A stretch of DNA of 64,000 nt, taken from the sequence record PP680568.1, one strand, 5' to 3'. A program made the position numbers and the translations under genes. Below the pieces are notes generated by a model that saw only the letters and a program-made list of their open reading frames with translations, was not told where the DNA came from and did not search any database. Positions within the stretch are counted from its first letter, which is position 1. Every line of letters starts with the position of its first letter. This stretch comes from Enterococcus phage VRE9_2. Shown one piece after another: positions 9,673-24,212 of this stretch.

Positions 9673-10974
9673 TTAAATTTTAATCCAAATATCTCCTTCT
9701 CTACCTGCCTTACCTGGATCAGTAACACTAAAGAAAATTCTAACCCCTTTAAATGATATATATGATTGTTCAGAAGATAATGCAGTATCTGTTAATAGTT
9801 CGCCGTCACTCATTCTTAGATAATGATAATATCCGCTTTCTGTTGGTTGTCCACTACCAGCATAATTTCTAGGGAATAAAATAGCTGCATCACGACTACT
9901 AGAGTAATTTCTAAATACAAGCTGTCCAATACCATTCATTGCTCCACCATTTATATCAATAGCTGGTTTACGATTTAAATTACCTACATAAGTCAAATTA
10001 GGCTCAGAAATTTTTAACGCTGGCATACCTAAATATCGTTTAGTATCTCCAATCGTCATTTGACCTGCAGGAACATGAATTCGTCCAAAATTCAATGTTA
10101 AAGAACCACCAGTATTTCCATCAACACCACCAAAAATAATATCATTTAATTCTGTTCCACCATTACCACTTGTCGCTATAATTAACGAATCTGTTGGGCT
10201 TGTCGGAAATTGGAAATCTAATCTTCCAAAACTATTCCTAATACTTAATGGAAGTCCTGAGCCATCTGTGTCTAATACAAGACTTCCTGTCATGGTTTGA
10301 TTTATAGTTTTATCTAAATAATTTTCATGTTTATGATTTGCTGGAGCTAAATTTGTGTGAGTATGGTCGATAGGTGAATATTTTGCTTTCATTGTTTCTA
10401 ATAAAGTTTTACCAGCAGATGCTGCTAATGCTCTATCAGAAGCTGAACTATCTAATGTAGAAACTAATTCATCTTTACGGACATATTGACTGAAATCAAT
10501 TCCACCTTCACTTGGGGATGCACCAGTCACTTCATAAGGAACAAAAGTACTACCATTCCAACCAAGTAATGTATTAACTTTTAGATTTTCTCCTAGTGTA
10601 ACATCTTTAAGTTCTCCAATAGAAGAGTTGGTTGATAATACTGGTGCTCCTCCTACTCGTAATGCTCCAGTAAAATTGTTCCAATCTCCTTCCCACATAT
10701 TGTTTCCACCCTTAAGAGCTATTAAGGCTGCTTCAATACCTTGATCTTGAACAATCTTTGTAATCTCTGGAATCAAATCAGAAAAATCTGATACTGTATG
10801 TTTGTGACCTTTTTGAGAAACCTCATTCCATGATTCATTATTTTGTCCTGTGGCTACCCAAATAGCTCTAGGATTTGAACCTGTATCAATATAAGTTTGT
10901 CCATAATATTCAGCACTAATGGTTGGTTTACCTGTGCCGTATAGCATATTTCCTCTAGTAATATGAATTGACAT
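9673..10974 (-). CDS. Gly/Thr-rich protein with HTHTN motif; tail-fibre-like or receptor-binding-like
   Basis: 433 aa, G-rich, DHTHTNLAPANHKH similar to HxH motifs of phage fibre proteins; weak. Confidence 0.4.
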   Translation of the reverse strand: MSIHITRGNMLYGTGKPTISAEYYGQTYIDTGSNPRAIWVATGQNNESWNEVSQKGHKHTVSDFSDLIPEITKIVQDQGIEAALIALKGGNNMWEGDWNNFTGALRVGGAPVLSTNSSIGELKDVTLGENLKVNTLLGWNGSTFVPYEVTGASPSEGGIDFSQYVRKDELVSTLDSSASDRALAASAGKTLLETMKAKYSPIDHTHTNLAPANHKHENYLDKTINQTMTGSLVLDTDGSGLPLSIRNSFGRLDFQFPTSPTDSLIIATSGNGGTELNDIIFGGVDGNTGGSLTLNFGRIHVPAGQMTIGDTKRYLGMPALKISEPNLTYVGNLNRKPAIDINGGAMNGIGQLVFRNYSSSRDAAILFPRNYAGSGQPTESGYYHYLRMSDGELLTDTALSSEQSYISFKGVRIFFSVTDPGKAGREGDIWIKI

Positions 10975-11033
10975 TTATTTGTCCTCCTTTATAATCTTTC
11001 TCTTATGTATATTAAAAAGCTTTTAAACCTAAT

Positions 11034-11066
11034 ATAAAAAAAGAACCCTAAAAGATTAAAGGGTTC
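11034..11066 (-). terminator. rho-independent terminator (minus strand) after 11065..11550
   Basis: hairpin GAACCCTttaatcttttAGGGTTC followed by T7 on the minus strand. Confidence 0.6.
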
Positions 11067-11550
11067 AAAAACTTTCTGATGTTTTTAGAAAAATAATACC
11101 ATTGGAAATAAATTTTTGTCCCCAATAAGTATCTTCTATTTCTTTATACTCATCTTGATTTACAGGAATTGGCAATGTACTTCTTACAATAGTTTGCTGT
11201 TTCATAATCTCTTTTTTTAAACGTTCCCTTTTTGTATATTTGGTTACCATATAAGGCAATATAAATATAGCAGGAAAAACTAAAAGCATTGAAAGCAAAA
11301 TTACAAGAAAAGAACGGAAAGTAAAAATAGAAGCTACTCTATCTTCTTGCTCCCACCGTTTGGCTGGAAGTATAATTGATTGTTCAGTAAAATTCCAGCG
11401 TTCAATTAATAAATCTCTTTTTTCAATTGCATTCCGAGCTTTTTCTAACTCTATTTGATGCCGAACCAAAACTCTACTATTAAATAGCTCCACTTTTAAC
11501 CCTCCTAACCAATCAGGAATCCTGTGTTTTTCTATAAAATTCTTTAACAT
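11065..11550 (-). CDS. hypothetical membrane protein
   Basis: 161 aa with one hydrophobic TM segment. Confidence 0.4.
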   Translation of the reverse strand: MLKNFIEKHRIPDWLGGLKVELFNSRVLVRHQIELEKARNAIEKRDLLIERWNFTEQSIILPAKRWEQEDRVASIFTFRSFLVILLSMLLVFPAIFILPYMVTKYTKRERLKKEIMKQQTIVRSTLPIPVNQDEYKEIEDTYWGQKFISNGIIFLKTSESF

Positions 11551-11588
11551 GCGAAAAACAAGCTCGTCCTCCTTATCTATCTGGTTTT

Positions 11589-12209
11589 TTAAAACAATTT
11601 AATTTGGTGTGAAGAACCTTTCACATAATTTACTATTAACATAGCTAATTTACCAGGATCTACGTAAATAGAATTTAACCTATTATAAATGAAATTTATT
11701 TCGGTTAGATTTGAATCTTTTGGCTCGTTTACTAGAAGATTATAATTTTCTGACAAGTGGTATCCTAATCCAGGAATATTTTTAATAAAGATTGAAGTAC
11801 CATCATAAATATAATCAAAATATTTACTAGCAATTTTATCAAACCATAATACATCCTTCTCTGCTAATAAATACATATCTGGGTCTTCTAACAATTCCAT
11901 CAAAAAAATAATAGAATCCTTCGCCACCTTATTCCCTGCTTCTCTTGGGACAATATTGCCATATATGCTATAAAAGACTAGATATAAATCTTCTTTAGTT
12001 TTTATAGAACAAGCTTCGTTATCTTTTGCAATATGCTCTATTGTATTATAGTTTATAAATGAATTTAGGATAGGTCCAATAGGTTTATCAGACACAAAAA
12101 ATCTAATATCCTCCATTGAACGATTTTCTAAATATTGATTAAAATATTCTGTATAGACCAAAGGCCCGCTACCAAAGATAGCAGGCTGTCCAGTAAAATC
12201 TAACATCAT
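11589..12209 (-). CDS. hypothetical protein
   Basis: 206-aa ORF. Confidence 0.45.
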   Translation of the reverse strand: MMLDFTGQPAIFGSGPLVYTEYFNQYLENRSMEDIRFFVSDKPIGPILNSFINYNTIEHIAKDNEACSIKTKEDLYLVFYSIYGNIVPREAGNKVAKDSIIFLMELLEDPDMYLLAEKDVLWFDKIASKYFDYIYDGTSIFIKNIPGLGYHLSENYNLLVNEPKDSNLTEINFIYNRLNSIYVDPGKLAMLIVNYVKGSSHQIKLF

Positions 12210-12508
12210 AAAATTCCATCTCCTTCAGATTCCACATAGGCTTTAATAGCTGAATAGAATTCTGATGGTGCTTCAAAACCAGCATAATTTGCTACAACCA
12301 AACATTGTTGTACATAATCAATAAATCTATCAAAAATCTCTGGATTATCCTTGAAATATTCATCAGTATCCTTTTCCATAGTAAAAGCAAGCTTTGCTTC
12401 GCCCTCTTCTTCTAAATATTGGATACCAACTTTTTCATCAACAATTAATTCAAAGAAAAATTTCTCATATTGTATATTGTCCAATTTTATCACTCCAATT
12501 TCCTTCAT
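12206..12508 (-). CDS. hypothetical acidic protein
   Basis: 100-aa ORF. Confidence 0.4.
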   Translation of the reverse strand: MKEIGVIKLDNIQYEKFFFELIVDEKVGIQYLEEEGEAKLAFTMEKDTDEYFKDNPEIFDRFIDYVQQCLVVANYAGFEAPSEFYSAIKAYVESEGDGIL

Positions 12509-13484
12509 AGGTTTTTAATTCACAATCTCCACATATAGGCATATCAGAAAAAGCATTTGTTTTATTACAAGATAAACATTTTACAACAGATCCATATTTT
12601 AATATTTCAGATTCTTTTGGCTCTCCTATATATAAATTCTCTCTTTTTGATTTTATACCTAAAGTAAAATCATTATATACTTGACTTAAATTTGTTTTAT
12701 AAGTTTTTATATTATCGTCATGAACTGAAATAAAATTCTCTCCAAGAGAAGAGAAGAAAGTATTTTGTAAAGTATTTATTGTAAATTCTTCAATTCCGTT
12801 ATTTTTATAGGGATACTGCGTAGATAACATTGCTCCTTTATAATCTTTTGAGAAAACTCCCAAGCGTCTATAAATTTTTTTATCTACGTATTCAACATCA
12901 TTAAAATTGGGTTTCTCTGTCATTACATAAGTTAAAAATGTATAATTATCTAAACCTGCAGAATATCCTCCAGTATAATGCTCTCCCATAGGTTTATAAC
13001 ATGTAGTCCATCCTCTACCAACCCCCATCATTATAAAATCATAAGGATGAACAGATATAACCAAATAACTGGATGGGAGAATATATGAATTTTTTATTTG
13101 AGAATACATTAATACAATTTCTTCTCCCAATTCTGGAGTTTGATTAATAACCTTAGATAATTTTTTGCCAGAAGAATGTTTATTCTCTATTAAATCTGAA
13201 TCATTTAATAGTCCTGCTAATTTAAAGAAGCCAGCATCTATTTTTCTGGTTTCTTTATATCGTTCCTTAAATTCTTTTTTAAAATCTCTTTCTGCTTGTG
13301 TTTTTATAGCTTTTATATTATCTATTTTAAAAACTAATCTTAGATTATTATCCATCATAGCAATTATTTCTTTTTTCTTTTCAGCAACTTGACTGAAAAA
13401 ATTTTCATAATTATTATACGAAAAGAGACTAACCCCTTGAGAGAGGTTAATCTTTTCGTACTGACTTTTCATATTTTCTGTCAA
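12465..13484 (-). CDS. member A of W-x-SC paralog family; C-terminal zinc ribbon
   Basis: core ISVHPYDFIMMGVGRGWTTCYKP..GGYSAG...KKIYRRLGVF...LSTQYPYKNNG aligns with the ORFs at 14592 and 16957; C-terminal CLSCN...CGDC. Confidence 0.55.
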   Translation of the reverse strand: MTENMKSQYEKINLSQGVSLFSYNNYENFFSQVAEKKKEIIAMMDNNLRLVFKIDNIKAIKTQAERDFKKEFKERYKETRKIDAGFFKLAGLLNDSDLIENKHSSGKKLSKVINQTPELGEEIVLMYSQIKNSYILPSSYLVISVHPYDFIMMGVGRGWTTCYKPMGEHYTGGYSAGLDNYTFLTYVMTEKPNFNDVEYVDKKIYRRLGVFSKDYKGAMLSTQYPYKNNGIEEFTINTLQNTFFSSLGENFISVHDDNIKTYKTNLSQVYNDFTLGIKSKRENLYIGEPKESEILKYGSVVKCLSCNKTNAFSDMPICGDCELKTYEGNWSDKIGQYTI

Positions 13485-13496
13485 ATTTCCACCATC

Positions 13497-14570
13497 TTAC
13501 TTTCCGTCATTATTTATAGTTTCAGTATAACGTTCTTTTTGTGATACATCTTCTAAGTATTTTTCTCGACACTCATCGCATAAATGCGACAATACTTCAT
13601 TGTCTGTATCAGACCAAGAAACTGTCCCTTTATCTAAAAAGCAAAATTCGCATTGTTCAACTTCTTTTTTTTTATTGCGACTTTTATAGGGGATAAAACT
13701 CGTTTCATCATCGTCATAATTTAGATAATCCGATTCATCATAAACGTCTTCATCTCCCCAGTAACAATAAGAACCATTTTGATAATAATTAGAATATCCA
13801 TAGTTACCATATCCAGCATAAGAATCTTCTTTATACTCATAAAATTTAGGATTTTGATATTGGTCTTCTAAAATTTCCTTTACTTTTCTCTGGGTCTTAT
13901 ACATTTCGTTAATATAAATGCGTTCATAACATGTGTGTTCATCCATATAGCCTGCCGATAAATTTACTCCTGCGAAACCAAATTCAGGACAAACTTGACA
14001 AATGTCTGTATAAGATCCATTGTGAGTTTTAAAACCAAAACTATTAATATATTCTTCAAAATCTGTGTTATCTAAATAATAATAGACAGATTCTCCGAAA
14101 CCTTTTCGATCCAATTGAATAGCGAAATTAATCTCTGTTAAAGCTGTTTGTACATCTTCTCCAAAGTAATTTTCTACATTTTTTGTGAAGAAACTAGATC
14201 CAATAGTTCCAATTTCCTCATCCCAACAAAATAATACATGAGGACGATAGCCTTGTGTCAACATATCTAAAATGCTAAAAACTCCACAACGATCATCTCC
14301 ACCAATACCATCAGGACACCATAAAACATTTTTTTCTTTATCGTGGAAAATAGTTTCCTCTGTTGGAGCTACTGTATGGACTGTATCCAAATGAGCCAAC
14401 ATAAGAACAGGAATATCTCCTTTAGCATAAATAAAACTACCATCAACACGATAAATATCTCTAGAATCATACATTGATTCTATTTGACCTAATAAATAAA
14501 AATGAAGCCCCTCTTGTGTCATTTGTAAAATGTTTTTAAAGGTTTGTAAACCTAATTCTTTCTTTTGCAT
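13497..14570 (-). CDS. M20/M28-type zinc metallopeptidase-like protein with C-terminal zinc ribbon
   Basis: HLDTVH ... GGDDRCG ... WDEEIG ... DEHT motif order typical of the co-catalytic zinc peptidase fold; CEFC...CDEC tail. Confidence 0.55.
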   Translation of the reverse strand: MQKKELGLQTFKNILQMTQEGLHFYLLGQIESMYDSRDIYRVDGSFIYAKGDIPVLMLAHLDTVHTVAPTEETIFHDKEKNVLWCPDGIGGDDRCGVFSILDMLTQGYRPHVLFCWDEEIGTIGSSFFTKNVENYFGEDVQTALTEINFAIQLDRKGFGESVYYYLDNTDFEEYINSFGFKTHNGSYTDICQVCPEFGFAGVNLSAGYMDEHTCYERIYINEMYKTQRKVKEILEDQYQNPKFYEYKEDSYAGYGNYGYSNYYQNGSYCYWGDEDVYDESDYLNYDDDETSFIPYKSRNKKKEVEQCEFCFLDKGTVSWSDTDNEVLSHLCDECREKYLEDVSQKERYTETINNDGK

Positions 14571-14591
14571 TTTATAAAATTCCCCCTTTTT

Positions 14592-15791
14592 TTAATAATC
14601 CCAATCATCTTCGTCGTCCCAATATTCATCTTCATCATAATAAGCGTCTTCATCAAAAAGACCTCCAACTTCAATCGATCCATCAATAAAGAAATCACAA
14701 GTTGGGCTTATAACTGAATCAACACCTACTTCAAAACGAACATTGCATAATTCAGTTTCATCAGTTTCATCATAAAAATCTTTATTGAAATGTTTTCTTA
14801 AGATATTTTCAGAATTATTTTCTCCTTCAACATTGTATTTTTGTTTATCTAAAATAATCATTGGAACTTTATTCATAGTCCCATGTGTAATATCATTATA
14901 GTGAATTTCACTACTTTCTCTAATAGTATTTTCTGCATCAGAAGAATCAATAAATCCATAAGCAACATTATCTTCTCCAAAAGTATCTACAAATAATTTG
15001 CGTAAAGCTTTAGTATTATTTTTATTAACGCTTGGATATGAACGAGACAAATAAATAGCATCTAACTCTGTATTAAACATACCCATTCTACGCCAAATTT
15101 TATCTGGAATACTGTCTTGACTACCTAAAATAATTTGACAAATAAAACTTGAACCATCTAATAAATAAGAAACTGGTCCAGCACCATAACAACCATCAAT
15201 AATAGAATGACAAGAAGACCATTCTCTGGTTTTGTTTACAGACATCATTAAAATATCAAGAGGATCAATAGAAACTTCTAAAACTCCTCGAGCTAATAAT
15301 GATTCATTAAATGCTGACAAATAAATTTGTATTTGGTTAACTAGTTTTTTATTTTTTAGAACACGCTTAAGAGACTTAGAAATTTTTGCTCCAGCTTGAA
15401 ATGATTCGCCTAAAATTTCTTTATTTGTCATAAAACGGTTTTTTTGTAATTCTTCTAAAGAAAAACTACTAAAATAAAGTGCTATAATTTTTCCTTCATT
15501 TTCTTCCATGGTCATAGACTTAATTTTAGATAAAAATGAAGAATGAAAAGCATCTTTAATCTCTGAATTTGATAATGCGTTTTCAACGCTTCCTTCTAAT
15601 CTTAATTTATTCCCAAACTTCTGAAAAATAGGAAATTTTGCTTGAGCCCAATCTCTTGCCCATGCTCGTCTAGTATCTGTATCGAAACCACCATTGATGC
15701 TATATAAAATATTATCAATTTCTTCCCAAGATTTTTTCATCATTGGTTCCATCAAATTTAATTTTTCTTCGATAGTATATGTTTTTTCCAT
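14592..15791 (-). CDS. member B of W-x-SC paralog family; acidic C-terminal tail
   Basis: VSIDPLDILMMSVNKTREWSSCHS..GCYGAG...KIWRRMGMF..LSRSYP core; DEDAYYDEDEYWDDEDDWDY tail. Confidence 0.55.
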   Translation of the reverse strand: MEKTYTIEEKLNLMEPMMKKSWEEIDNILYSINGGFDTDTRRAWARDWAQAKFPIFQKFGNKLRLEGSVENALSNSEIKDAFHSSFLSKIKSMTMEENEGKIIALYFSSFSLEELQKNRFMTNKEILGESFQAGAKISKSLKRVLKNKKLVNQIQIYLSAFNESLLARGVLEVSIDPLDILMMSVNKTREWSSCHSIIDGCYGAGPVSYLLDGSSFICQIILGSQDSIPDKIWRRMGMFNTELDAIYLSRSYPSVNKNNTKALRKLFVDTFGEDNVAYGFIDSSDAENTIRESSEIHYNDITHGTMNKVPMIILDKQKYNVEGENNSENILRKHFNKDFYDETDETELCNVRFEVGVDSVISPTCDFFIDGSIEVGGLFDEDAYYDEDEYWDDEDDWDY

Positions 15792-15818
15792 TGCAAAATC
15801 TCCCTTTTTTTTATTTTA

Positions 15819-16061
15819 TTATTGTAAATTAAAATTTACTCCTTGTTTTGTTAAAAAATATTTTCGAGGAGTATCAGCAGTTTTGTCTACTAGTCCTTTT
15901 TTGTTTAATGAAGTTAATACACCTGGAACACCATTAGGCATCATAAATGCTAATTCTGCCACACGTTTCGAAAATACTGCATCTTCTTCTTTATCAATAT
16001 GAGCTTCTTGTAAAGCTTTTAAAACTTGCATACCTTTTTCTGTTAATTTAATTTCTTCCAT
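15819..16061 (-). CDS. small protein of the TPxxL..KKYKVK-tail family (divergent member)
   Basis: 80 aa; C-terminal NKKGLVDKTADTPRKYFLTKQG resembles the tails of the ORFs at 19278, 36189, 57477, 60924 and 63003. Confidence 0.4.
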   Translation of the reverse strand: MEEIKLTEKGMQVLKALQEAHIDKEEDAVFSKRVAELAFMMPNGVPGVLTSLNKKGLVDKTADTPRKYFLTKQGVNFNLQ

Positions 16062-16268
16062 TTAAAATCCGCTCCTATTTTTTATTATCAATTCATTTTC
16101 TATAATATAATTATAACAAATTGAACTAACTTTTTCAAATTGTGTGTTTACATAAGCTATCTGACTTTTTGTTTCTTTCATTTAACTTATAATTAATTAT
16201 ATCATTTAATATATAAAAACTCAAATAAAAAATCCCAATCATCTAGATTGGGATTAATTTTAAATAAT

Positions 16269-16583
16269 TTATGCTCCAGCTTGACTAACTGTAATTTCAA
16301 TTGTAGATTGATCAGAAAGAGTAGCTGTTCCTCCAGTTACTTTACCAGATTCGTCTGTTGTTAAGGCAATAGCCGTAATAGATTTTCCATCTGTACCATT
16401 TGCCCCAGCAGCTCCTTTTGCACCGGCATCCCCCTTGTCTCCTTTAGGTCCGGCAGGTCCAGTCTCACCTGGATCTCCTTTAGGTCCTTTTTGTTCTTGT
16501 AAGAAATCTACTAAAGAAGCAAATGATTCTTGTGTCATAGTTTTACCAGTTGCAAATAATGCTTTAATTTGTTCTGCGTTCAT
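16269..16583 (-). CDS. small collagen-like (Gly-X-Y repeat) protein
   Basis: GPKGDPGETGPAGPKGDKGDAGAKGAAGANGTDGKS, about 12 uninterrupted G-X-Y triplets in a 104-aa protein. Confidence 0.55.
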   Translation of the reverse strand: MNAEQIKALFATGKTMTQESFASLVDFLQEQKGPKGDPGETGPAGPKGDKGDAGAKGAAGANGTDGKSITAIALTTDESGKVTGGTATLSDQSTIEITVSQAGA

Positions 16584-16644
16584 TTTGTTTCCTCCTATTT
16601 TTAAATATATTTGAGAACTTATCTCTTTTTATTATGAAAAAGTC

Positions 16645-16860
16645 TTATTCTGCTTTTCCAACTTTTGCCTTACCTACTATAGCTTTTCCTACAATAGATT
16701 CTTCACCTAATTCTTCTTCTTTTTTATAAGCAATAGCTTTATCCGTAGGACAAATCATATAATAGAAATCTTCCGTTTTGTTTTTACGATAATTAATAAC
16801 CATATAATTTTCTTCATATTCTCGTCCACAATGAGAACATACATAAATATCTTTTTTCAT
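16645..16860 (-). CDS. small zinc-ribbon protein with C-terminal GKAIVGKAKVGKAE repeat; paralog of 602..853
   Basis: CSHCG...CPTDK; shared tail repeat. Confidence 0.5.
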   Translation of the reverse strand: MKKDIYVCSHCGREYEENYMVINYRKNKTEDFYYMICPTDKAIAYKKEEELGEESIVGKAIVGKAKVGKAE

Positions 16861-16956
16861 TCTCTTTCCTCCTTTTGGTAATCGCTAATACTATTAAAAA
16901 GACCTAATTTGAAACAATAAAATAAAGCCCTATTTTATAATAGGGCTTAAATCTTA

Positions 16957-18828
16957 TTATTCTTTTACTTCGCCAGTTAATAAGAAGTCAATGAATTCTT
17001 TATTAATAGGACTGTCTCCAGTCAAACGGAATTCAAAAGAACTATCTTCAAGAGGCTCCCATGAAAAACCTAAAGAATCTAAAATAATTTTAGTTTTTAA
17101 TTGAAATTCTTCTTCTCGATTTTCACATTTGAAAATATAATCCTTTAGAATTTCAAAACAATCTTTTTTAGATGTACCTAATTCTTGATACTTTTTGAAA
17201 ATTTTATTCATTTTCCAAGCTTCATCAAGAATGTTTGGTAGTTCCTGAGAAAAGATTTCTTTCCATTCATCAGAATCAATATCTTCTGTATTTTCATGAT
17301 ATTTTCCGTCAACTTTCCAAATAAAGCAATCATGGATACAAGCAGTTACTCCATTTGATAATTCTACAACATCTTCTTGAAGCATATAACTATCAAGAGT
17401 TTCGCACCATGCAGCATCAGAAGTTAAGAGATATTCTTCTAAATGATCTGAGTAAGTAGCATCTTTTGTATAAACCCAAGAATCTTCTTTGGAGCCAATC
17501 GCATGAACTGCTTCTTCTCCCCAAATATTTTCTCCTTCTTTGGTAGACCAAATGGTTTCTTCTCCACAGCATTCACAAACATAGACAATATCTCCAAAAG
17601 TATCTAATACTCGAACACCATAATCTTCATCAAAACGTTCTTCACAAGATGGACAAATTGATCTTGAACCATAGTAACATTCTTCACAAAGCCCTGAACA
17701 ATTTGCAGGATCATCTTTAGAACCACATTCGAGACAAACAAAGGCGCTTTGTGCATTAATTGGGATAGTTTTGCCTTCTTCCGCCTGAAAAAGAACAGGA
17801 GATCGTAAACCTCGAATTGCATCATTCCAGTTGAAAGCATCTACATAACCATATTCATTACAATCTGAACCATTTCTCCAACGAAAACGAGTTAAATTTT
17901 CTTCAATTTGGTTAATTTTCGCATTACCTTCCCAACCCAATAAAGATAAGGTTGCATTACTAATCATATTTTGTAATCCATTATTCAAACGGGGATATCC
18001 TTTTTGAGATAAAAGAACTGGAACAGTTTCTTCTTCATAGTCAACTTCAGAAACGAACATCATTTGACGCCATACTTTTGGAGCTAAATAACCAAACTCT
18101 TCTAAATCTTTTTCCATTACAGTAAAACCAACAAAAGCATCTGGTCCAACCATGTAACCTAGTGTACCATTATTATATTCACCTTCGTCAGGGTGCATAC
18201 ATGAACGCCAGCTATTTCCATAACTAATTAAGAATAAATCTTCTGGTCTGATAGATAGAACAATTTTTCGTCCATCAAAATTTGCCCCTGATGCAAAACT
18301 AGCCATTTCTCCACCAACAATTTTATTTTTAATGTCAGAAACCGCTTCTTTTAATTTCCTAGTTGAAGAAACGTTTTGAGCAGACAATACTGACATATCA
18401 ACTAAAGAGTTTAAAACTTTAGTTAAACGTTGTCCATGGAAAGGTAACATTTTGAATTCATCTTTCATAATTACCTTTTTATTTTCAACTCTGATTTTGT
18501 CAAAAGTATTATAAACTGATGTTTTAAAAACGTCAATGAAATTATAAGAAATATCCAAGTCACGTAAATCAGAATATAATCCATCATCTACATAATTTTT
18601 CATTTCTTCAAATGAAAATTCTTCCATGAAATCTTTGAAATCTTTAGGATCTAAGACAATCCTTCCATTTGTTCCATCAAAGATTTTTTGTAGGTAAGAG
18701 TTTTTCATTTCCATTCCTTTTGCATAATAATCTAAATATTGTGAGTCTGATAATGAGCCCCACTCATAAAATTCATTAAAGATTTCTTTTAAATTTGCTT
18801 TAACCTCTTCAACGCTATAATTTAACAT
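16957..18828 (-). CDS. member C of W-x-SC paralog family; large Cys-rich protein
   Basis: LSIRPEDLFLISYGNSWRSCMHP..GEYNNG...KVWRQMMFV...LSQKGYPRLNNG core; multiple CxxC pairs (CLECG, CEEC, CPSCE, CECCG). Confidence 0.55.
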   Translation of the reverse strand: MLNYSVEEVKANLKEIFNEFYEWGSLSDSQYLDYYAKGMEMKNSYLQKIFDGTNGRIVLDPKDFKDFMEEFSFEEMKNYVDDGLYSDLRDLDISYNFIDVFKTSVYNTFDKIRVENKKVIMKDEFKMLPFHGQRLTKVLNSLVDMSVLSAQNVSSTRKLKEAVSDIKNKIVGGEMASFASGANFDGRKIVLSIRPEDLFLISYGNSWRSCMHPDEGEYNNGTLGYMVGPDAFVGFTVMEKDLEEFGYLAPKVWRQMMFVSEVDYEEETVPVLLSQKGYPRLNNGLQNMISNATLSLLGWEGNAKINQIEENLTRFRWRNGSDCNEYGYVDAFNWNDAIRGLRSPVLFQAEEGKTIPINAQSAFVCLECGSKDDPANCSGLCEECYYGSRSICPSCEERFDEDYGVRVLDTFGDIVYVCECCGEETIWSTKEGENIWGEEAVHAIGSKEDSWVYTKDATYSDHLEEYLLTSDAAWCETLDSYMLQEDVVELSNGVTACIHDCFIWKVDGKYHENTEDIDSDEWKEIFSQELPNILDEAWKMNKIFKKYQELGTSKKDCFEILKDYIFKCENREEEFQLKTKIILDSLGFSWEPLEDSSFEFRLTGDSPINKEFIDFLLTGEVKE

Positions 18829-18844
18829 AAATGAAAAACTCCCT

Positions 18845-18895
18845 TTCTTTAACTTATATAAATATTATATCATTTTAAAAATTACTTTTCAAATA
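18845..18895 (-). promoter_or_regulatory. minus-strand promoter for 16957..18828 (TTGAAA-17-TATAAT, TGaTATAAT extended -10)
   Basis: reverse complement reads ttgaaaagtaatttttaaaatgaTATAATatttatataagttaaagaaagggag then ATG. Confidence 0.5.
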
Positions 18896-19130
18896 ATGTT
18901 TTTTAAAATCTAAACTTTATTTGAATTTTCGTTTCTAAAACTTGATTACAAAACTATTATATAATTTTAAAAAAAGTTTTTCAACCAAGAGCAACAAGGA
19001 TTTCGCCTCTGACTAAAAACGTATTTGACTTTTTTCGTTTAATATATATTTTTATAAATATTTTTTTATATAAAAAGGAAGTTTTTTGTTCGTGCATTAC
19101 AAATCGGCTCCCCCATCATTGCTCTCTTGG

Positions 19131-19160
19131 GTTGACTTTTTTATGTTCAATATATATAAT
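19131..19160 (+). promoter_or_regulatory. consensus sigma70-type promoter TTGACT-17-TATAAT
   Basis: ttgacttttttatgttcaatatatataat read directly. Confidence 0.55.
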
Positions 19161-19198
19161 TAATATAGAGTTTTGAGTAATTCTCAGAGTAAAAATTC

Positions 19199-19228
19199 TT
19201 GACTTTTTGATTATTATATGTTATAATT
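19199..19228 (+). promoter_or_regulatory. second tandem consensus promoter TTGACT-17-TATAAT
   Basis: ttgactttttgattattatatgttataat. Confidence 0.55.
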
Positions 19229-19277
19229 AATCATAAAGATAAATAAAGAATTAAAATTTGAAGGAGTGTATTTTTAA

Positions 19278-19646
19278 ATGAAAGAAGAAATTATTAAAAA
19301 ATTTATGAACGCCTTAAACATTTCAAGAGAAGCAGCTTTGGAGTTATATGATTATGATGAACGAGTAGAAAAAAGTAATAAGCCTGTAGAAGGGGAAATT
19401 GTAGTTAAAAAGGTTCCTAAAACTTCAAAGAAAAAAGGTATTCAAAAAGAAGAATTAGATGCAATGAAAGATTTGTTATCTAAAATGTTTCCGAATGGAG
19501 AAGAGTTTAAAAATAGTCAATTATCTCCATTATGTGAAGAATTAAACTTAACTAATAGACAGACTCCTTCAAGATTAAAAGCATTAAAAGAAGAAGGTTT
19601 CTTAGAAGACTTAGGTGGTTCACCTAAAAAATATAAGGTTAAATAA
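19278..19646 (+). CDS. small protein, TPxxL..KKYKVK-tail family (putative winged-helix DNA/RNA-binding)
   Basis: C-terminal NRQTPSRLKALKEEGFLEDLGGSPKKYKVK nearly identical to the tail of the ORF at 60924. Confidence 0.55.
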   Translation: MKEEIIKKFMNALNISREAALELYDYDERVEKSNKPVEGEIVVKKVPKTSKKKGIQKEELDAMKDLLSKMFPNGEEFKNSQLSPLCEELNLTNRQTPSRLKALKEEGFLEDLGGSPKKYKVK

Positions 19647-19668
19647 GACAAAATGTCTTGGTTTTTTC
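19645..19668 (+). terminator. rho-independent terminator
   Basis: AAGACAaaaTGTCTT hairpin followed by GGTTTTTT. Confidence 0.55.
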
Positions 19669-19730
19669 AGAGAAACTTTCTTATATTGAGTTTTAAATAA
19701 ACTACCGATATAGGAGAGGATGAAAGTTTT

Positions 19731-21771
19731 ATGTTAAATGTAATGAAAAAAGATGGTCATATTGAAATTTTTGACACGAAGAAAATTCAGGAGGCAATTT
19801 TAGCTTCTGCAAGGAAAATTCTTTCTAATGAAGAAGAATATGATATGCAGCAAAAAGCTTTAATTATTGCGAATGAGGTAGCTCGTTTCTTAAATTCAAC
19901 TGAAGATGAAAATGCAGTTATTATGACATCTAAAATTCATAATGTTGTTCTGGAGATTCTATCCAAAGAATGGGAAGTCGTTGGAGCTTCTTATGGAATG
20001 TATAGAAACTATAGAAAACAAATGGCTAAAACATTTTTAAAAAGTTATGAGGAATCTGAAACTGTACTCCACGATGGAGATAAAGAAAATGCTAATAAAG
20101 ATAGTGATTTGAATAGTACAAAACAAGCTTTAATTGCAAATAATAATATGCGTGGTTATATGGAAACATTTGAAATGGATAAAGATTGGATTGAAGCTCA
20201 TAAACAAGGTTGGATACACATTCATGATTTAGCAGAGCGTTATTTGCGCCAGCAAAATTGTTGTTTGTTTAACATGGCAGGTTTATTAGATGGTGGGTTC
20301 CAATTAAATGGAACAGTTTATGCAGAGCCTAAACATTTTGATTCTGCTATTAATGTAGTAGGAGATGTTACTTTGTTTGCATCTGCACAGCAATATGGCG
20401 GTTTTACTATTCCTGAAATAGATACTGTTTTAGCTAAATACGCTGAAAAAAGTTATCAATCAAATTTAAAATTTATTTTAGATAAATTTGGAGATATTAC
20501 TAATGAAGATATTATGGAAACACTAGAACAAACAGCTTACGACATGACTGTTAGAGAGCTAGAACAAGGCTTTCAAGGCTTTGAAACAAAATTAAATACA
20601 ATTAGTAATTCTTTAGGACAAATTCCTTTTGTAACAATTACTTTTGGTTTGGATACAACTCAATGGGGAAGAGAAATTTCTAAAGCTATTTTGAATGTAC
20701 GGATTAAAGGGATTGGAGAAAATAAATCAACAGCGGTATTTCCTAAATTATCTTTTTTACATAGAAAGGAAATTAATGGAAATCCAGAATCTCCTAATTA
20801 TGATATTAAACAATTAGGGATTCAATGTTCTCGATTAAGATTATATCCTGATTGGCTGTCCCTAGATAGTGGAAATCTTGCAGAAGTATATGAAAGATCT
20901 AATCAAGTTGTATCTGGGATGGGATGTCGAGCATATTTAAGTCCATTTTGGGACGAGCAAGGAAATGAAATTTACACTGGACGATCTAATATTGGAGCCG
21001 TTACATTGAACCTTCCTAAAATTGGTTTAGAATCAAAAGGGGATTGGAATAAATTTTTTGATCTAGTAGATAAATATTCTGATATTGTTTTTGCTATTCA
21101 TGAAGATTATTATACTAAAATTAGTAAAACAAAAGGTTCTTCTAACCCTCTATATTTCTGTGAAGGTGGAGCTTGGACAAAAGTAGGCTATGATGAAGAA
21201 GTTGGGAAGATATATGAAGCTTCAACTGCTTCATTGGGATATATTGGAATTTATGAAACATTAAAAGCAATGAATGTTTCAAAAGAAGAATATCTTAAAT
21301 ATGGGACTAAAATTGTTGCATATTTGAAAAAATTAACAGAAAAAGCTACAATTAATTATAATCATTTATATGCACTTTATTCAACCCCAGCAGAAAGTTT
21401 ATGCTATAGATTCCAGAAAATTAATCGTAAATATTATGGAGTAATTGAAGATGTAACTGATAGAGAGTACATTACAAATTCTTTCCATGTTCCAGTATGG
21501 GAAGATGTTAGCGTTCCTGAAAAAATTGCTTTTGAAGCACCATTCCATAAACTTGCAACAGGTGGGCGAATTTCTTATAATGAATTTGTTTATGGAGTAG
21601 ATAATTCTGTGCTAGAACAAGCAATTAACTTTGCTATGGAAAATGGAATGTATTATGGAGTTAATGTTGTTGCAGGAACTTGTAATCAATGTGGTTATAG
21701 TGGAGATTTCCATGACAATTGTCCTAAATGTGGTACCCATGATATTACAGTAGTAACGAGAGTTTGTGGGT
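19731..21771 (+). CDS. nrdD: anaerobic ribonucleoside-triphosphate reductase NrdD, exon 1
   Basis: N-terminal ATP cone (MKKDGHIEIFDTKKI), class III body, C-terminal Zn ribbon CNQCG...CPKCG, ends ...VTRVCG then intron; exon ends in U as expected for a group I 5' splice site. Confidence 0.8.
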
Positions 21772-22809
21772 TAACTATAAAAAGTTCTCTTTAAAAAACT
21801 TAAAGGCTCACGTAAAACAGGATAAATTGCGGGAACATCCTAAAGTTCTTAACTACTAAGCAAATATAGTGATATATTTGTGGCTGAACTAATCACTCAG
21901 GTATAGTAAAAAGGTTAAGAAATTGGACAATCCGCAGCGATACCTCTCATTAGAGAGAGACGTTCAACGACTATAAACCTGCTCTGGCTTAATTTTAAGC
22001 TAAATGTATAGTCTAGTCCGAGATAATATGTAGTATAATAGGAGTTGTTACAGTATAGATTTTTATGTATACATTCATTATACTAAAGATACAAAAGAAA
22101 TATTTTATGTAGGTAAGGGTATAAATAACAGAGCTTATTCAAAAGTTAAACGAAATAAGTTTTGGTGGAATATTGTTAATAAGCATGATTATTGCTTAAA
22201 AATTTTATATTCAAATTTATCAGAAGAAAAGGCTTTCCTTTTAGAGAAGGAATTAATTAAAAATCTAAAAGCTATTGGATTAGCAAAAGCAAACTTCCAT
22301 GAAGGAGGTTCAGGAGGAAATACAATGAAATACGCCCCTCTTGGAGAAATCCAAAAGTGGAAAGAAAGTTTATGCTCCGCTCAACAAAATTTAGATTTAG
22401 AAACTAGACAAAGATTAAGTCAAATTCGTAGTCTAAATGTAAGCGGAGATAAAAATCCTCAATTTAATAAGCCTGGATTTAATACAGGTCGCAAATTTTC
22501 TGATGAACATAAAAATAAAATTAGCAATGCTTTAAAACAATATTCTATGACAGAAGAACACAAACAAAATATAACAAAATCACACAACAAATATCTATTA
22601 AAGGTTATTACAGATAATGGAGAAGAAATGATTTTTAGTTCTCTAAAGGAAGCTTCTGAAACACTAGGAGTTCCTAAGACTACATTATCTAGTTGTGGAC
22701 ATGGAAATAATGGCAGAAACAAAACCCATTATTCTTCCAAATATAAACTTACTGCATATTATCTAACATAAGTATCCCGAAAGGGACGGTAGATTCGATT
22801 TATCCTTTG
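21772..22809 (+). mobile_element. group I (IA-like) self-splicing intron in nrdD carrying a GIY-YIG homing endonuclease ORF
   Basis: core elements read in sequence: P AATTGCGGGAA (21825-21835), Q AATCCGCAGC (21929-21938), R GTTCAACGACTA (21962-21973), S ATAGTC (22008-22013); intron ends in G (22809); joining 21771 to 22810 gives ...TRVCG-Y-QIHGDSRYNPGKQKEVKERVKHNFK*. Confidence 0.78.
22055..22771 (+). CDS. intron-encoded GIY-YIG homing endonuclease (I-TevI/I-TevII-like) with NUMOD-type C-terminal repeats; start codon non-canonical or uncertain
   Basis: frame open from 22034: ..DFYVYIHYTKDTKEIFYVGKG...RAYSKVKRNKFWWN (GIY...YIG...R...N), later GRKFSDEHKNKISNALK NUMOD-like; no in-frame ATG/GTG/TTG before 22325; TAGGAG RBS at 22039-22044 then ATA at 22055. 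Confidence 0.65.
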   Translation: MDFYVYIHYTKDTKEIFYVGKGINNRAYSKVKRNKFWWNIVNKHDYCLKILYSNLSEEKAFLLEKELIKNLKAIGLAKANFHEGGSGGNTMKYAPLGEIQKWKESLCSAQQNLDLETRQRLSQIRSLNVSGDKNPQFNKPGFNTGRKFSDEHKNKISNALKQYSMTEEHKQNITKSHNKYLLKVITDNGEEMIFSSLKEASETLGVPKTTLSSCGHGNNGRNKTHYSSKYKLTAYYLT

Positions 22810-22889
22810 ATCAGATTCATGGTGACTCACGTTATAATCCTGGTAAACAAAAAGAAGTTAAAGAAAGAGTTAAACATAATTTCAAATAA
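22810..22889 (+). CDS. nrdD: NrdD exon 2 (glycyl-radical C-terminus)
   Basis: completes the codon TAT (Y) to give RVCGY; ..NPGKQKEVKERVKH matches the conserved NrdD C-terminal pattern PFNAGKQEEVKRRVKH as I recall it from E. coli. Confidence 0.75.
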
Positions 22890-22901
22890 AAGGAGAAATA
22901 T

Positions 22902-23195
22902 ATGAAAGAAAAGGAACAAGAGGTTATTGAAAAGTTATATGCTTATGTATCAGAAATGGATATTGTTTTAGCAGAAAAGAAACTACAAACAATTTCTTTA
23001 ATACTTTTTATTCTTATGGGAGGATATTGTTTAATCTTTTCTTGCCCTGTATTTATTAATATTGTTTCTTTATCCGGCTTAGCTTATTTTGCTTTTACTT
23101 TATTGGCAAATTTAATGCTTGAACAACTTTTGGATAAAGAAATTTCAAAAAATGAAGTTTTATTAGAACAAATTCTTAAAAATAAAGAGAAATAG
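22902..23195 (+). CDS. hypothetical membrane protein
   Basis: 97 aa with two hydrophobic segments; AAGGAG RBS. Confidence 0.45.
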   Translation: MKEKEQEVIEKLYAYVSEMDIVLAEKKLQTISLILFILMGGYCLIFSCPVFINIVSLSGLAYFAFTLLANLMLEQLLDKEISKNEVLLEQILKNKEK

Positions 23196-23217
23196 AAAGA
23201 AAGGAAGTTTTTTAAAA

Positions 23218-23385
23218 TGATGTTTATTGCAGTTTTTTGTGGGATTTGTATCCTATTATTAATTGGTTCTGGAATGAAAGCAAATATAGGAAGAGATACT
23301 ACGAGATTAGAGAATATGGCTTACTTAATGTTTGCCATATTCTTAATTTTGTTTATCCTAATTTTAATTGGGGGAGCATAATATG
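23218..23385 (+). CDS. small hydrophobic protein (55 aa)
   Basis: ORF MMFIAVFCGICILLLIG...; below the ORF-track length cutoff; AGGAAG RBS. Confidence 0.3.
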
Positions 23386-23904
23386 GCTTATTTACACAAT
23401 ATAAAAAAATATGATATGGAAAACAGTGGTTTAAAAGGAGCCTCAGTTTCTTTATGGTTTAATCATTGTCCACATCATTGCCCAGGATGCTGGAATTCAG
23501 AAACTTGGGAAAGAAATGAAAACTTATATGAGGATAACCAAGAGGTAATAGAAGAGGTGCTCGATGGTCTTGATGGAGGACCAATGAAATTAAATACTCT
23601 TGCTCTTTTGGGAGGAGACCCTCTCAGTCCTAAAAATATAAAAGATACATTAGAAATTTTATCGGCAGTTAAAACAAAAAGACCAGAGACAGAGGTTATC
23701 TGTTGGACTGGTTTTACTTGGGAACAAGTAACTAAAAGTAAGTTACTTAAACCAGTATTAGAATATTTAGATGTATTAATTGATGGTCGTTTTATGATAG
23801 ACCGTAGAATCGAAGGTAAAAAATATGGTTCTGACAATCAAAGATGTATTGATGTGAAAAAATCTCTTCAATGTGATAAAATATATTTAATGGAGGGATT
23901 TTAA
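23383..23904 (+). CDS. nrdG: anaerobic RNR activating enzyme (radical SAM) NrdG
   Basis: CPHHCPGC = CxxxCxxC cluster motif; start moved to MAYLHN with GGGGGAG RBS. Confidence 0.78.
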   Translation: MAYLHNIKKYDMENSGLKGASVSLWFNHCPHHCPGCWNSETWERNENLYEDNQEVIEEVLDGLDGGPMKLNTLALLGGDPLSPKNIKDTLEILSAVKTKRPETEVICWTGFTWEQVTKSKLLKPVLEYLDVLIDGRFMIDRRIEGKKYGSDNQRCIDVKKSLQCDKIYLMEGF

Positions 23905-24212
23905 TGTTTGGTCTTAATAAAAAAACAGAAAAAAATTCTGTGAAAAAGTATCGTAAAAAACCTGTTGAAGTAGAAGTATGGCTTTTTAATAGAGAAAATT
24001 TGGAAACAGCAGAAAGTTGGGTACGCAAGTATTCAGATAAAATGGTTTTATTTTCTCAATATGGTGGAGAAAAAATTTGGATAGAAATAAAAACTTTAGA
24101 AGGTGTAATGAAAGCTTCTGAAGGAGACTATATTATAAAAGGAATCAATGGAGAATTATATCCTTGTAAACCAGATATTTTTCTCAAAACTTATGAAGAG
24201 GTGACAAATTAA
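23904..24212 (+). CDS. hypothetical protein
   Basis: 102-aa ORF, translationally coupled. Confidence 0.45.
   Translation: MFGLNKKTEKNSVKKYRKKPVEVEVWLFNRENLETAESWVRKYSDKMVLFSQYGGEKIWIEIKTLEGVMKASEGDYIIKGINGELYPCKPDIFLKTYEEVTN

Follow-up and report, generated by a model that had tools for sequence, protein, structure and literature searches.

An Unnamed Family of Phage Proteins and Its Pairing With a Clan-MH Hydrolase in Enterococcus Phage VRE9_2

Introduction

The stretch of DNA considered here, hereafter the window, comprises 64,000 nucleotides of Enterococcus phage VRE9_2 (record PP680568.1) and carries on its minus strand a cluster of seven genes, three of which encode large proteins belonging to one unnamed family while a fourth encodes a predicted zinc hydrolase accompanying this family in other phages as well. 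The proteins are designated by their lengths in amino acids and, in the order of transcription, are p623 (16957..18828), the distal paralogue; p71 (16645..16860), a small Cys-containing protein; p104 (16269..16583), a collagen-like product; p80 (15819..16061), a small winged-helix-like protein; p399 (14592..15791), the paralogue directly upstream of p357; p357 itself (13497..14570), predicted to be a clan-MH (M20/M28/M42-like) di-zinc hydrolase; and p339 (12465..13484), the paralogue directly downstream of it. All seven open reading frames (ORFs) were confirmed at these coordinates, following an earlier sequence-only reading of the window. Across the cluster region the window is about 94% identical to Enterococcus phages EF1, EF5, H1, VRE9_3, and VRE9_4 (~134-142 kb), and according to one paper EF1 may group with phAss-1-like gut phages as a possible new family (PMC10607447).

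Genomic contexts were compared at 11 loci, namely the window and ten extra ones (L002, L004, L005, L006, L007, L008, L009, L014, L015, and L016) retrieved via family members at varied distances, with all six-frame ORFs being scanned by local hidden Markov models (HMMs) of the family and of p357. Conservation was measured on 175 non-redundant members left after removal of redundant cluster members, smaller sets containing 25 and 52 sequences, and residues of the family are numbered as in p339 unless stated otherwise. The size of the family was estimated by exhaustive HMM scanning of 1.84 billion representatives clustered at 50% identity.

Three Paralogues of One Family

Pairwise BLASTP comparisons are significant for each pair of the large proteins (E=2e-13 for p339 and p399, E=1e-10 for p339 and p623, and E=3e-7 for p399 and p623), so that by sequence they are true paralogues, and no fourth copy was detected in the window by the family HMM. 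A family of three had been proposed in the sequence-only reading, whose motif string agrees with the alignment, the key residues of the motif being invariant across the sets of 25, 52, and 175 sequences. The alignment is also supported by structure, since Foldseek, run on BFVD with the model of p339 as query, returns the p623 orthologue A0A249Y195 at E=1e-10. The extent of the similarity had been set too low, at about 90 amino acids, homology in fact covering about 300 and including a helical N-terminal domain and the Tyr-Asn-Asp motif at positions 270-272.

In p339, the helical N-terminal domain (residues 1-133), in which K37, N101, G106, K108, and S128 are the conserved positions of the family, is followed by an alpha/beta core (139-300) and a ribbon, C303xxC...C318xxC; the key residues are S144, P147, D149, W159, C162, K203, R206, Y224-P225, and D272. 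In close relatives, the annotated start is the ATG 12 nt after the TTG, which makes the protein 335 amino acids long, and the true start is probably this ATG at 13472. The counterparts of the key residues in p399 are S174, P177, D179, W191, C194, K231, R234, Y252-P253, and D300; this paralogue is devoid of a zinc ribbon and terminates in an acidic aromatic tail (DEDEYWDDEDDWDY). In p623, the family region spans approximately residues 19-350 (S192, P195, D197, W207, C210, K251, R254, Y278-P279, and D336); beyond it, CxxC occurs four times, and the C-terminal part, about 230 amino acids long, is acidic. The initial description of the three proteins as Cys-rich and acidic suits p623 (17 Cys, net charge -52) and, with respect to acidity only, p399 (net charge -25, 5 Cys, and no CxxC), but it does not apply to p339 (net charge +2, 5 Cys). 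Among 191 collected members, 137 possess ribbons after the core, often in tandem (one to three), the p399 subfamily having none. Acidic aromatic tails are a recurrent feature of some members as well as of the hydrolase linker. An analogy with LysW/LysK-like carriers, where a ribbon with an acidic Trp tail stands next to an M20 hydrolase, was considered and rejected, given that the tail occurs in just 46 of the 137 ribbon-bearing members and that the p399 subfamily is ribbonless.

The family turned out to be absent from collections of named domains, as had been supposed. Its core gave no match in Pfam with single proteins, with 25 members, or with 52, apart from one marginal exception of the GNAT (acyl-CoA N-acyltransferase) type that is discussed below, and none in NCBIfam or PADLOC, while sequence profiles of the PDB returned zinc-finger matches only; in PADLOC-DB v2, p339, p357, p399, p71, and p623 all remained without a match at E<=1. 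Correspondence was found among PHROGs of "unknown function": p339 and p399 match PHROG 18912 over the full length and p623 matches PHROG 29713, and in the set of 52 diverse members the first is matched by 49 and the second by 18. At the level of sequence, these two entries, kept separate in PHROGs, form one family tied to peptidases of the PHROG 4191 type.

As many as 3,350 family clusters were counted at E<=1e-3 (2,070 at E<=1e-10), and thus we deal with a large family rather than a local curiosity. Its size is masked by the small sample of cultured phages, among which BLAST confines it to the five Enterococcus phages named above, and a word-indexed homology search likewise yields just 22-24 close relatives, far below the exhaustive scan. 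Structural search adds uncharacterized proteins of Dickeya phage JA29 (two copies) and Agrobacterium phage Atu_ph07 and other nameless entries. The question raised by the sequence-only reading, whether the core is restricted to phages, is answered in the affirmative for every genomic context recovered, prophages of named bacteria lying outside this survey. In the literature, we found no described system of this composition and no data on these genes. A subgroup of metagenomic members (P0128, P0135, P0137, P0138, P0148, P0149, and P0160) shares an N-terminal extension of 125-165 amino acids, having no match in Pfam and ending in a conserved (I/V)IKEMISK(I/V) junction before the family region.

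Conservation of the family is concentrated in a handful of positions. W159, C162, R206, Y224, and P225 are present in all 175 members; S144, D149, and D272 in 99%; K37 and K203 in 97%; P147 and G106 in 96%; and the mean column identity in the alignment of 52 sequences is just 14%. Near-invariant positions that are so few, on a very low background identity, form a sequence pattern that would be typical of a binding or an active site. No His or Glu belongs to this group, all of them staying below 60% among the 175 members, with the top His (58%) adjoining the Cys. This bears on the early suggestion that Trp-x-Ser-Cys is reminiscent of a thiol nucleophile. Trp-x-x-Cys is indeed invariant (175 of 175), but it lacks a conserved His or acidic partner placed for a Cys-His/Asp arrangement, and the family therefore does not conform to the classical triad of thiol hydrolases; papain-like, NlpC/P60, and transglutaminase-like enzymes were compared as well, and C162 provides the invariant Cys, but the His partner and the papain-like fold are missing. 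Judging from conservation, the invariant Cys possibly fits a functional thiol with cysteine chemistry other than the classical triad.

The AlphaFold2 model of p339 is confident (predicted local distance difference test, pLDDT, 87.6; predicted template modeling score, pTM, 0.80). In this model, the order of core elements matches the GNAT pattern up to beta5, with low similarity scores, and the loop with the invariant Tyr-Pro occupies the position where GNATs have the loop binding the pyrophosphate of coenzyme A. GNATs in turn lack the invariant Trp-x-x-Cys and Lys-x-x-Arg of the family, which adds a helical N-terminal domain of about 130 amino acids and, usually, one to three ribbons. On the basis of the model, the core may be called weakly GNAT-like.

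The Hydrolase and Its Linkage to the Family

All positions of the co-catalytic HxD...DD...EE...H signature that the sequence-only reading had ascribed to p357 are present and align with the motifs of PepT and the tripeptidase, and the CxxC tail that it had noted is found as well. Among orthologues sharing 43-53% identity with p357, H60-x-D62, D92/D93, E118-E119, D154, and H212 do not vary, and since the metal and catalytic positions are preserved, the di-zinc site looks intact. The protein matches PHROG 4191 "peptidase" at E=3e-30, whereas with the Pfam M28 model it scores 19.0 bits, below the cut-off of 21.3, which its homologue from Pectobacterium phage PhiM1 passes with 31.4 bits. A profile built from four p357 sequences retrieves from the PDB the M20 tripeptidase 3rza (E=1e-4), PepT 3gb0 (E=9e-4), and, more weakly, M42 FrvX. 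Compared to M20, M28, and M42 enzymes, p357 keeps the HxD, D, EE, D/E, H order and is devoid of the M20 lid, or dimerization, domain, as about 50 profile positions separate the blocks, where M20 enzymes have about 150 residues and 3rza about 160. Its C-terminal part consists of a Tyr/Gly/Asp-rich linker followed by a C307xxC...C331xxC ribbon, both being additions relative to clan MH that are found in EF1-type and some other orthologues. Thus, by its sequence motifs, p357 is a predicted zinc hydrolase of clan MH (M20/M28/M42-type).

A p357 homologue was detected in all 11 loci carrying a family member, and in ten of them it directly adjoins the latter with gaps from -52 to +75 nt, the two genes being about 10 kb apart in L005. 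That a peptidase gene is clustered with the family had been noticed before, and the observation is confirmed, though it understated a linkage holding at every locus. Since p357 homologues occur in just 125 of 50,697 phage records, this co-occurrence is not a matter of chance. Gene order is fixed as well: a gene of the p399 type stands immediately upstream of the hydrolase gene and, where present, the ribbon-bearing copy lies directly downstream of it and the p623-type copy 2.4-4.6 kb further upstream. These positions of the subfamilies are maintained although p339 orthologues are just 46-57% identical across the phages in question. The p399 subfamily is the type adjoining the peptidase in single-copy loci, and in L007 and L008, each having a single family gene, it is p399 that this gene matches best. 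L008 is a temperate phage encoding a serine integrase, a cI-like repressor, ERF, holin, and amidase, and contains the smallest module seen (9701-12165), in which genes for an 86-amino-acid MazE/AbrB-like protein, a 438-amino-acid family member, and a ribbonless hydrolase of 283 amino acids are placed in an accessory slot between the lysis genes and the serine integrase. Since the gene types travel together in all related phages examined, they probably act as one system.

A possible remote relative of the family emerged from podoviruses of the KP34/PhiM1 type, in which a protein of approximately 550-580 amino acids, encoded directly upstream as family members are, overlaps the start of the gene for a "putative peptidase" homologous to p357. 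In Pectobacterium phage PhiM1, it is a 577-amino-acid hypothetical protein encoded by gene 09 (L012, 3101-4834). Its motifs HPND, SCM, R, and R-W-Y-G follow in the same order and with spacing similar to the family, and the order of core elements in its confident structural model (pLDDT 85.2) is the same; GNAT domains appear weakly among the structural matches of this model, and a single entry of BFVD, A0A823AEG0, is common to the matches of the two models (E=3e-3 with p339 and 4.5e-6 with the PhiM1-type protein). Tested for membership, the protein was negative with the family HMM, hhalign gave E=0.014 at a probability of 3%, which is not significant, and a reciprocal Foldseek search returned no orthologue of p339 or p623, leaving A0A823AEG0 as the sole bridge. 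Membership was accordingly dropped, and remote kinship with the family is kept as a possible lead. For the KP34-like phage fHe-Kpn01, the toxic proteins described are small and different from those considered here (PMC7291057).

Transcription Signals and Neighboring Genes

Upstream of p623, two sigma-70-like promoter matches (18864..18984, minus strand) have the layout TTGAAA-17-TATAAT, each agreeing with the consensus in 11 of 12 positions and one possessing the TG of an extended -10 element; they belong to a divergent intergenic region of 450 bp, which contains sigma-70-like promoters of this quality (11/12) on both strands. One more match of the same layout (16110..16138, minus strand), with TG and 11/12 agreement, precedes p80. 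Bidirectional terminator-like hairpins are situated 3' of p623 (16925..16948) and 3' of p104 (16231..16255), dividing the cluster into three units, p623 alone, p71-p104, and p80-p399-p357-p339 onward. Genes of the last unit, p80 being the first, are tightly packed with gaps of 27, 21, and 12 nt, and a Shine-Dalgarno-like sequence stands before each of them. At its 3' end, p339 shares at least 20 nt with the following gene (12206-12508, minus strand), the annotation of EF1 being the same, and hence the unit runs on into p100, p206, and the membrane protein p161; the order p339, p100, p206, p161 is kept in L002, L004, and L009. The sign of GC skew switches at 18-20 kb, and scanning of positions 11000-24000 against Rfam detected no RNA family.

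The product p104 passes the cut-off of the Pfam Collagen model PF01391 (28.9 against 27.2 bits), so that its designation as collagen-like stands, but it is not a pure Gly-X-Y protein as was assumed: the repeat makes up one third of the sequence, with just 12 triplets at residues 33-68. Its length is 104 amino acids in the window and 124 in EF1 (L001, 11804-12178), which suggests that the number of Gly-X-Y repeats varies between close relatives. A collagen-like gene is found within the cluster in the window, L009, and L015 and is absent from L002, L004, L006, L007, L008, L014, and L016, and in view of this inconsistent presence p104 probably lies outside the module. For p71, initially taken for a zinc-ribbon protein with a VGKA repeat, three C-terminal VGKA repeats were verified, along with a single CxxC (C8xxC11) and a third Cys (C37). 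The winged-helix-like character of p80 is indicated by weak winged helix-turn-helix matches only, all below the cut-offs, and PADLOC-DB v2 offers just a marginal match (CARF3, E=0.019); proteins of 77-84 amino acids occupy its position in L002, L004, and L015.

Several features around the cluster deserve description in their own right. Downstream of it, the minus strand at 9673-10974 encodes a 433-amino-acid protein of fibre-like sequence with repeated His-x-His motifs (HKHT, DHTHT, and NHKHE), and L002, L004, and L009 each encode a protein of 433-436 amino acids at the corresponding place downstream of the module. On the other side, the nrdD frame (19731-22883, plus strand) stops inside the glycyl-radical motif (...TRVCG followed by LTIKSSL and a stop), and the last 28 codons of nrdD are recognizable at 22800-22883, with about 1.03 kb of intervening sequence (21771-22799) in between. 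The latter holds an ORF for an endonuclease-like protein of 148 amino acids (22325-22771), and no intron model of Rfam reaches the threshold within it. This insertion is missing from EF1, where another one, containing HNH and not shared by the window, is placed about 360 bp upstream. In L002, positions 16546-20349 encode the large subunit of a class I ribonucleotide reductase with a LAGLIDADG intein, followed by a gene of the Tad4 family (PF25186).

Discussion

Taken together, the conservation pattern, the weak resemblance of fold, the intact site of the hydrolase, and the strict linkage lead us to favor, tentatively and with odds still against it, an early-expressed cytoplasmic module of two enzymatic parts, in which the family would serve as the partner of the clan-MH hydrolase. 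The ancestral unit may have consisted of a p399-type gene and a hydrolase gene directly after it, to which larger lytic phages of the EF1/phAss-1 type would have added a p339-type ribbon copy directly downstream and a p623-type multi-ribbon copy farther upstream. The GNAT-like core and the invariant polar set (Ser144, Asp149, Trp159-x-x-Cys162, Lys203-x-x-Arg206, Tyr224-Pro225, and Asp272) suggest that the family proteins would be catalysts rather than scaffolds. With a chemistry of the acyl-transfer kind, they would make or bind an acyl, aminoacyl, or peptidyl conjugate on a target of the host or the phage, held by the helical N-terminal domain and zinc ribbons; the M20/M28-like hydrolase, sharing this substrate and perhaps in physical contact with its partner, would form or cleave that linkage, with distinct target specificities supplied by the paralogues. 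A still more specific version, doubtful enough to be named with some reserve, is that of a widespread phage system of two enzymes in which a new enzyme class, having a highly diverged GNAT-like or a novel fold and the invariant Trp-x-x-Cys, Lys-x-x-Arg, Tyr-Pro, and Asp, would mark macromolecules of the host or the phage covalently and the hydrolase would write, edit, or erase the mark. In T4, the ADP-ribosyltransferases Alt, ModA, and ModB are early host-modifying enzymes represented by multiple paralogues, and the phages considered here resemble it in that a large lytic phage encodes, outside its structural genes, several diverged paralogues sharing one enzyme-like fold; by this analogy, the divergence of the paralogues would suggest different targets.

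A number of observations weigh against the two-part enzyme module. The 11 loci include several from phages related to each other and represent perhaps six independent lineages. No family member was detectable within 5 kb of the hydrolase in Lactococcus phage P087, Bacillus phage Thrax2, and Thermus phage P23-45, that is, three of the four sampled hydrolase loci have no candidate partner, and the hydrolase is consequently not dependent on the family. The GNAT motif A, Q/R-x-x-G-x-G/A, is absent, its beta4-alpha3 loop reading L-S-x-x-Y-P-x-x-N with Y and P invariant and without a pair of glycines, and HMMs of the GNAT clan match none of 25 members and one of 52 (Acetyltransf_19, E=0.0095, below any cut-off), for which reasons the core was not filed as GNAT. 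The family was nowhere found fused to the hydrolase or to any informative domain; in the search for Rosetta-stone proteins, no member contained the hydrolase domain, and the N-terminal extensions of 12 members proved to be uncharacterized domains of their own. As to timing, the assignment of the cluster to an early, host-takeover-like region is plausible, as a leftward unit starts from a divergent promoter-bearing region, but promoter-like sites number 50 in the region and 48 in shuffles, showing no excess, so that we infer early expression from the layout.

The one-way dependency just described, with the family always accompanied by the hydrolase (11 of 11) and the hydrolase often alone, would be expected of non-catalytic adaptors recruiting host proteins or peptides to p357, a different target for each paralogue, or of clients that p357 trims terminally and thereby activates. 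Divergence of the paralogues chiefly in tails and ribbons speaks for the same, as do the acidic aromatic tails common to some members and the hydrolase linker. Such adaptors or clients remain unlikely in our estimate, because ten polar or aromatic positions conserved at 97-100% exceed what a docking surface usually needs, an acidic-Trp tail is limited to 46 of 137 ribbon-bearing members, and, here again, a family-hydrolase fusion was not encountered.

The neighborhood of the module directs attention to nucleic acids. In six of the 11 loci, its neighbors include nrdD, other genes of ribonucleotide reductase, or thymidylate synthase, and 137 members out of 191 carry at least one zinc ribbon behind the core, so that DNA, tRNA, or an intermediate of the nucleotide pool might be the substrate, nucleic acid being bound by the N-terminal domain and ribbons, with the hydrolase acting as an amidohydrolase on a group linked to a nucleotide. 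This neighborhood, however, may mirror common ancestry and is missing in L007, L008, and L014; matches of the helical domain are at the noise level; no known base-modification family (such as aGPT-Pplase, TET/JBP, or kinases) was matched in Pfam; and p399, whose subfamily is the universal partner, has no ribbon. We accordingly hold action on nucleic acids or nucleotides to be rather improbable.

Somewhat less credible again is a module of conflict, be it toxin-antitoxin, abortive infection, superinfection exclusion, or counter-defence, originating as an accessory pair of temperate phages recruited by lytic ones. The pair of L008, inserted into the lysis-integrase slot directly after a MazE/AbrB-type gene, is what one would expect in this case; a small winged-helix-like gene precedes the module in EF1-type phages, and multiple fast-diverging paralogues are typical of conflict genes. 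Set against this are the lack of PADLOC models matching either the family protein or the hydrolase, the lack of a chromosomal defence-island context among the recovered contexts, all of them phage-derived (prophages were outside the survey), and the silence of the literature on such a system; furthermore, the fixed order is kept in strictly lytic large phages, beside genes of replication and nucleotide metabolism.

Assembly of the virion or tail fibre, with the hydrolase as a maturation protease and the family as assembly factors for the collagen-like and fibre-like neighbors, would account for the collagen-like gene in the clusters of the window, L009, and L015 and for the conserved position of the downstream fibre-like His-x-His protein, but it is very improbable given the seven clusters lacking the collagen gene, the location of the L008 pair outside the tail module, and transcription of the genes divergently from the region next to nrd genes, and clan-MH exopeptidases are not known to act as prohead or tail maturation proteases.

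Whichever of these explanations holds, the parts are of known kinds (an MH-clan hydrolase, zinc ribbons, and a GNAT-like alpha/beta core), but the family is unnamed, and the literature searched contains no description of its obligate pairing with the hydrolase. The family combines an enzyme-like invariant site with thousands of clusters, yet has no name, domain model, or solved relative, and the strictness of the pairing converts three hypothetical proteins into a defined two-component system with a minimal two-gene version in a temperate phage. If the two-part module introduces a new chemistry of covalent modification, it would add an enzyme class, and large gut phages would gain several targets through expansion of the paralogues; if the proteins are adaptors or assembly factors, the outcome would be a useful annotation and no surprise. 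Should the KP34/PhiM1-type protein be a remote member, the system would reach many podoviruses of Klebsiella and Pectobacterium. Cultured carriers infect Enterococcus faecalis and E. faecium, the isolates VRE9_3 and VRE9_4 among them, and the role of the module, whether in host takeover, counter-defence, or otherwise, bears on the understanding of these Enterococcus phages.

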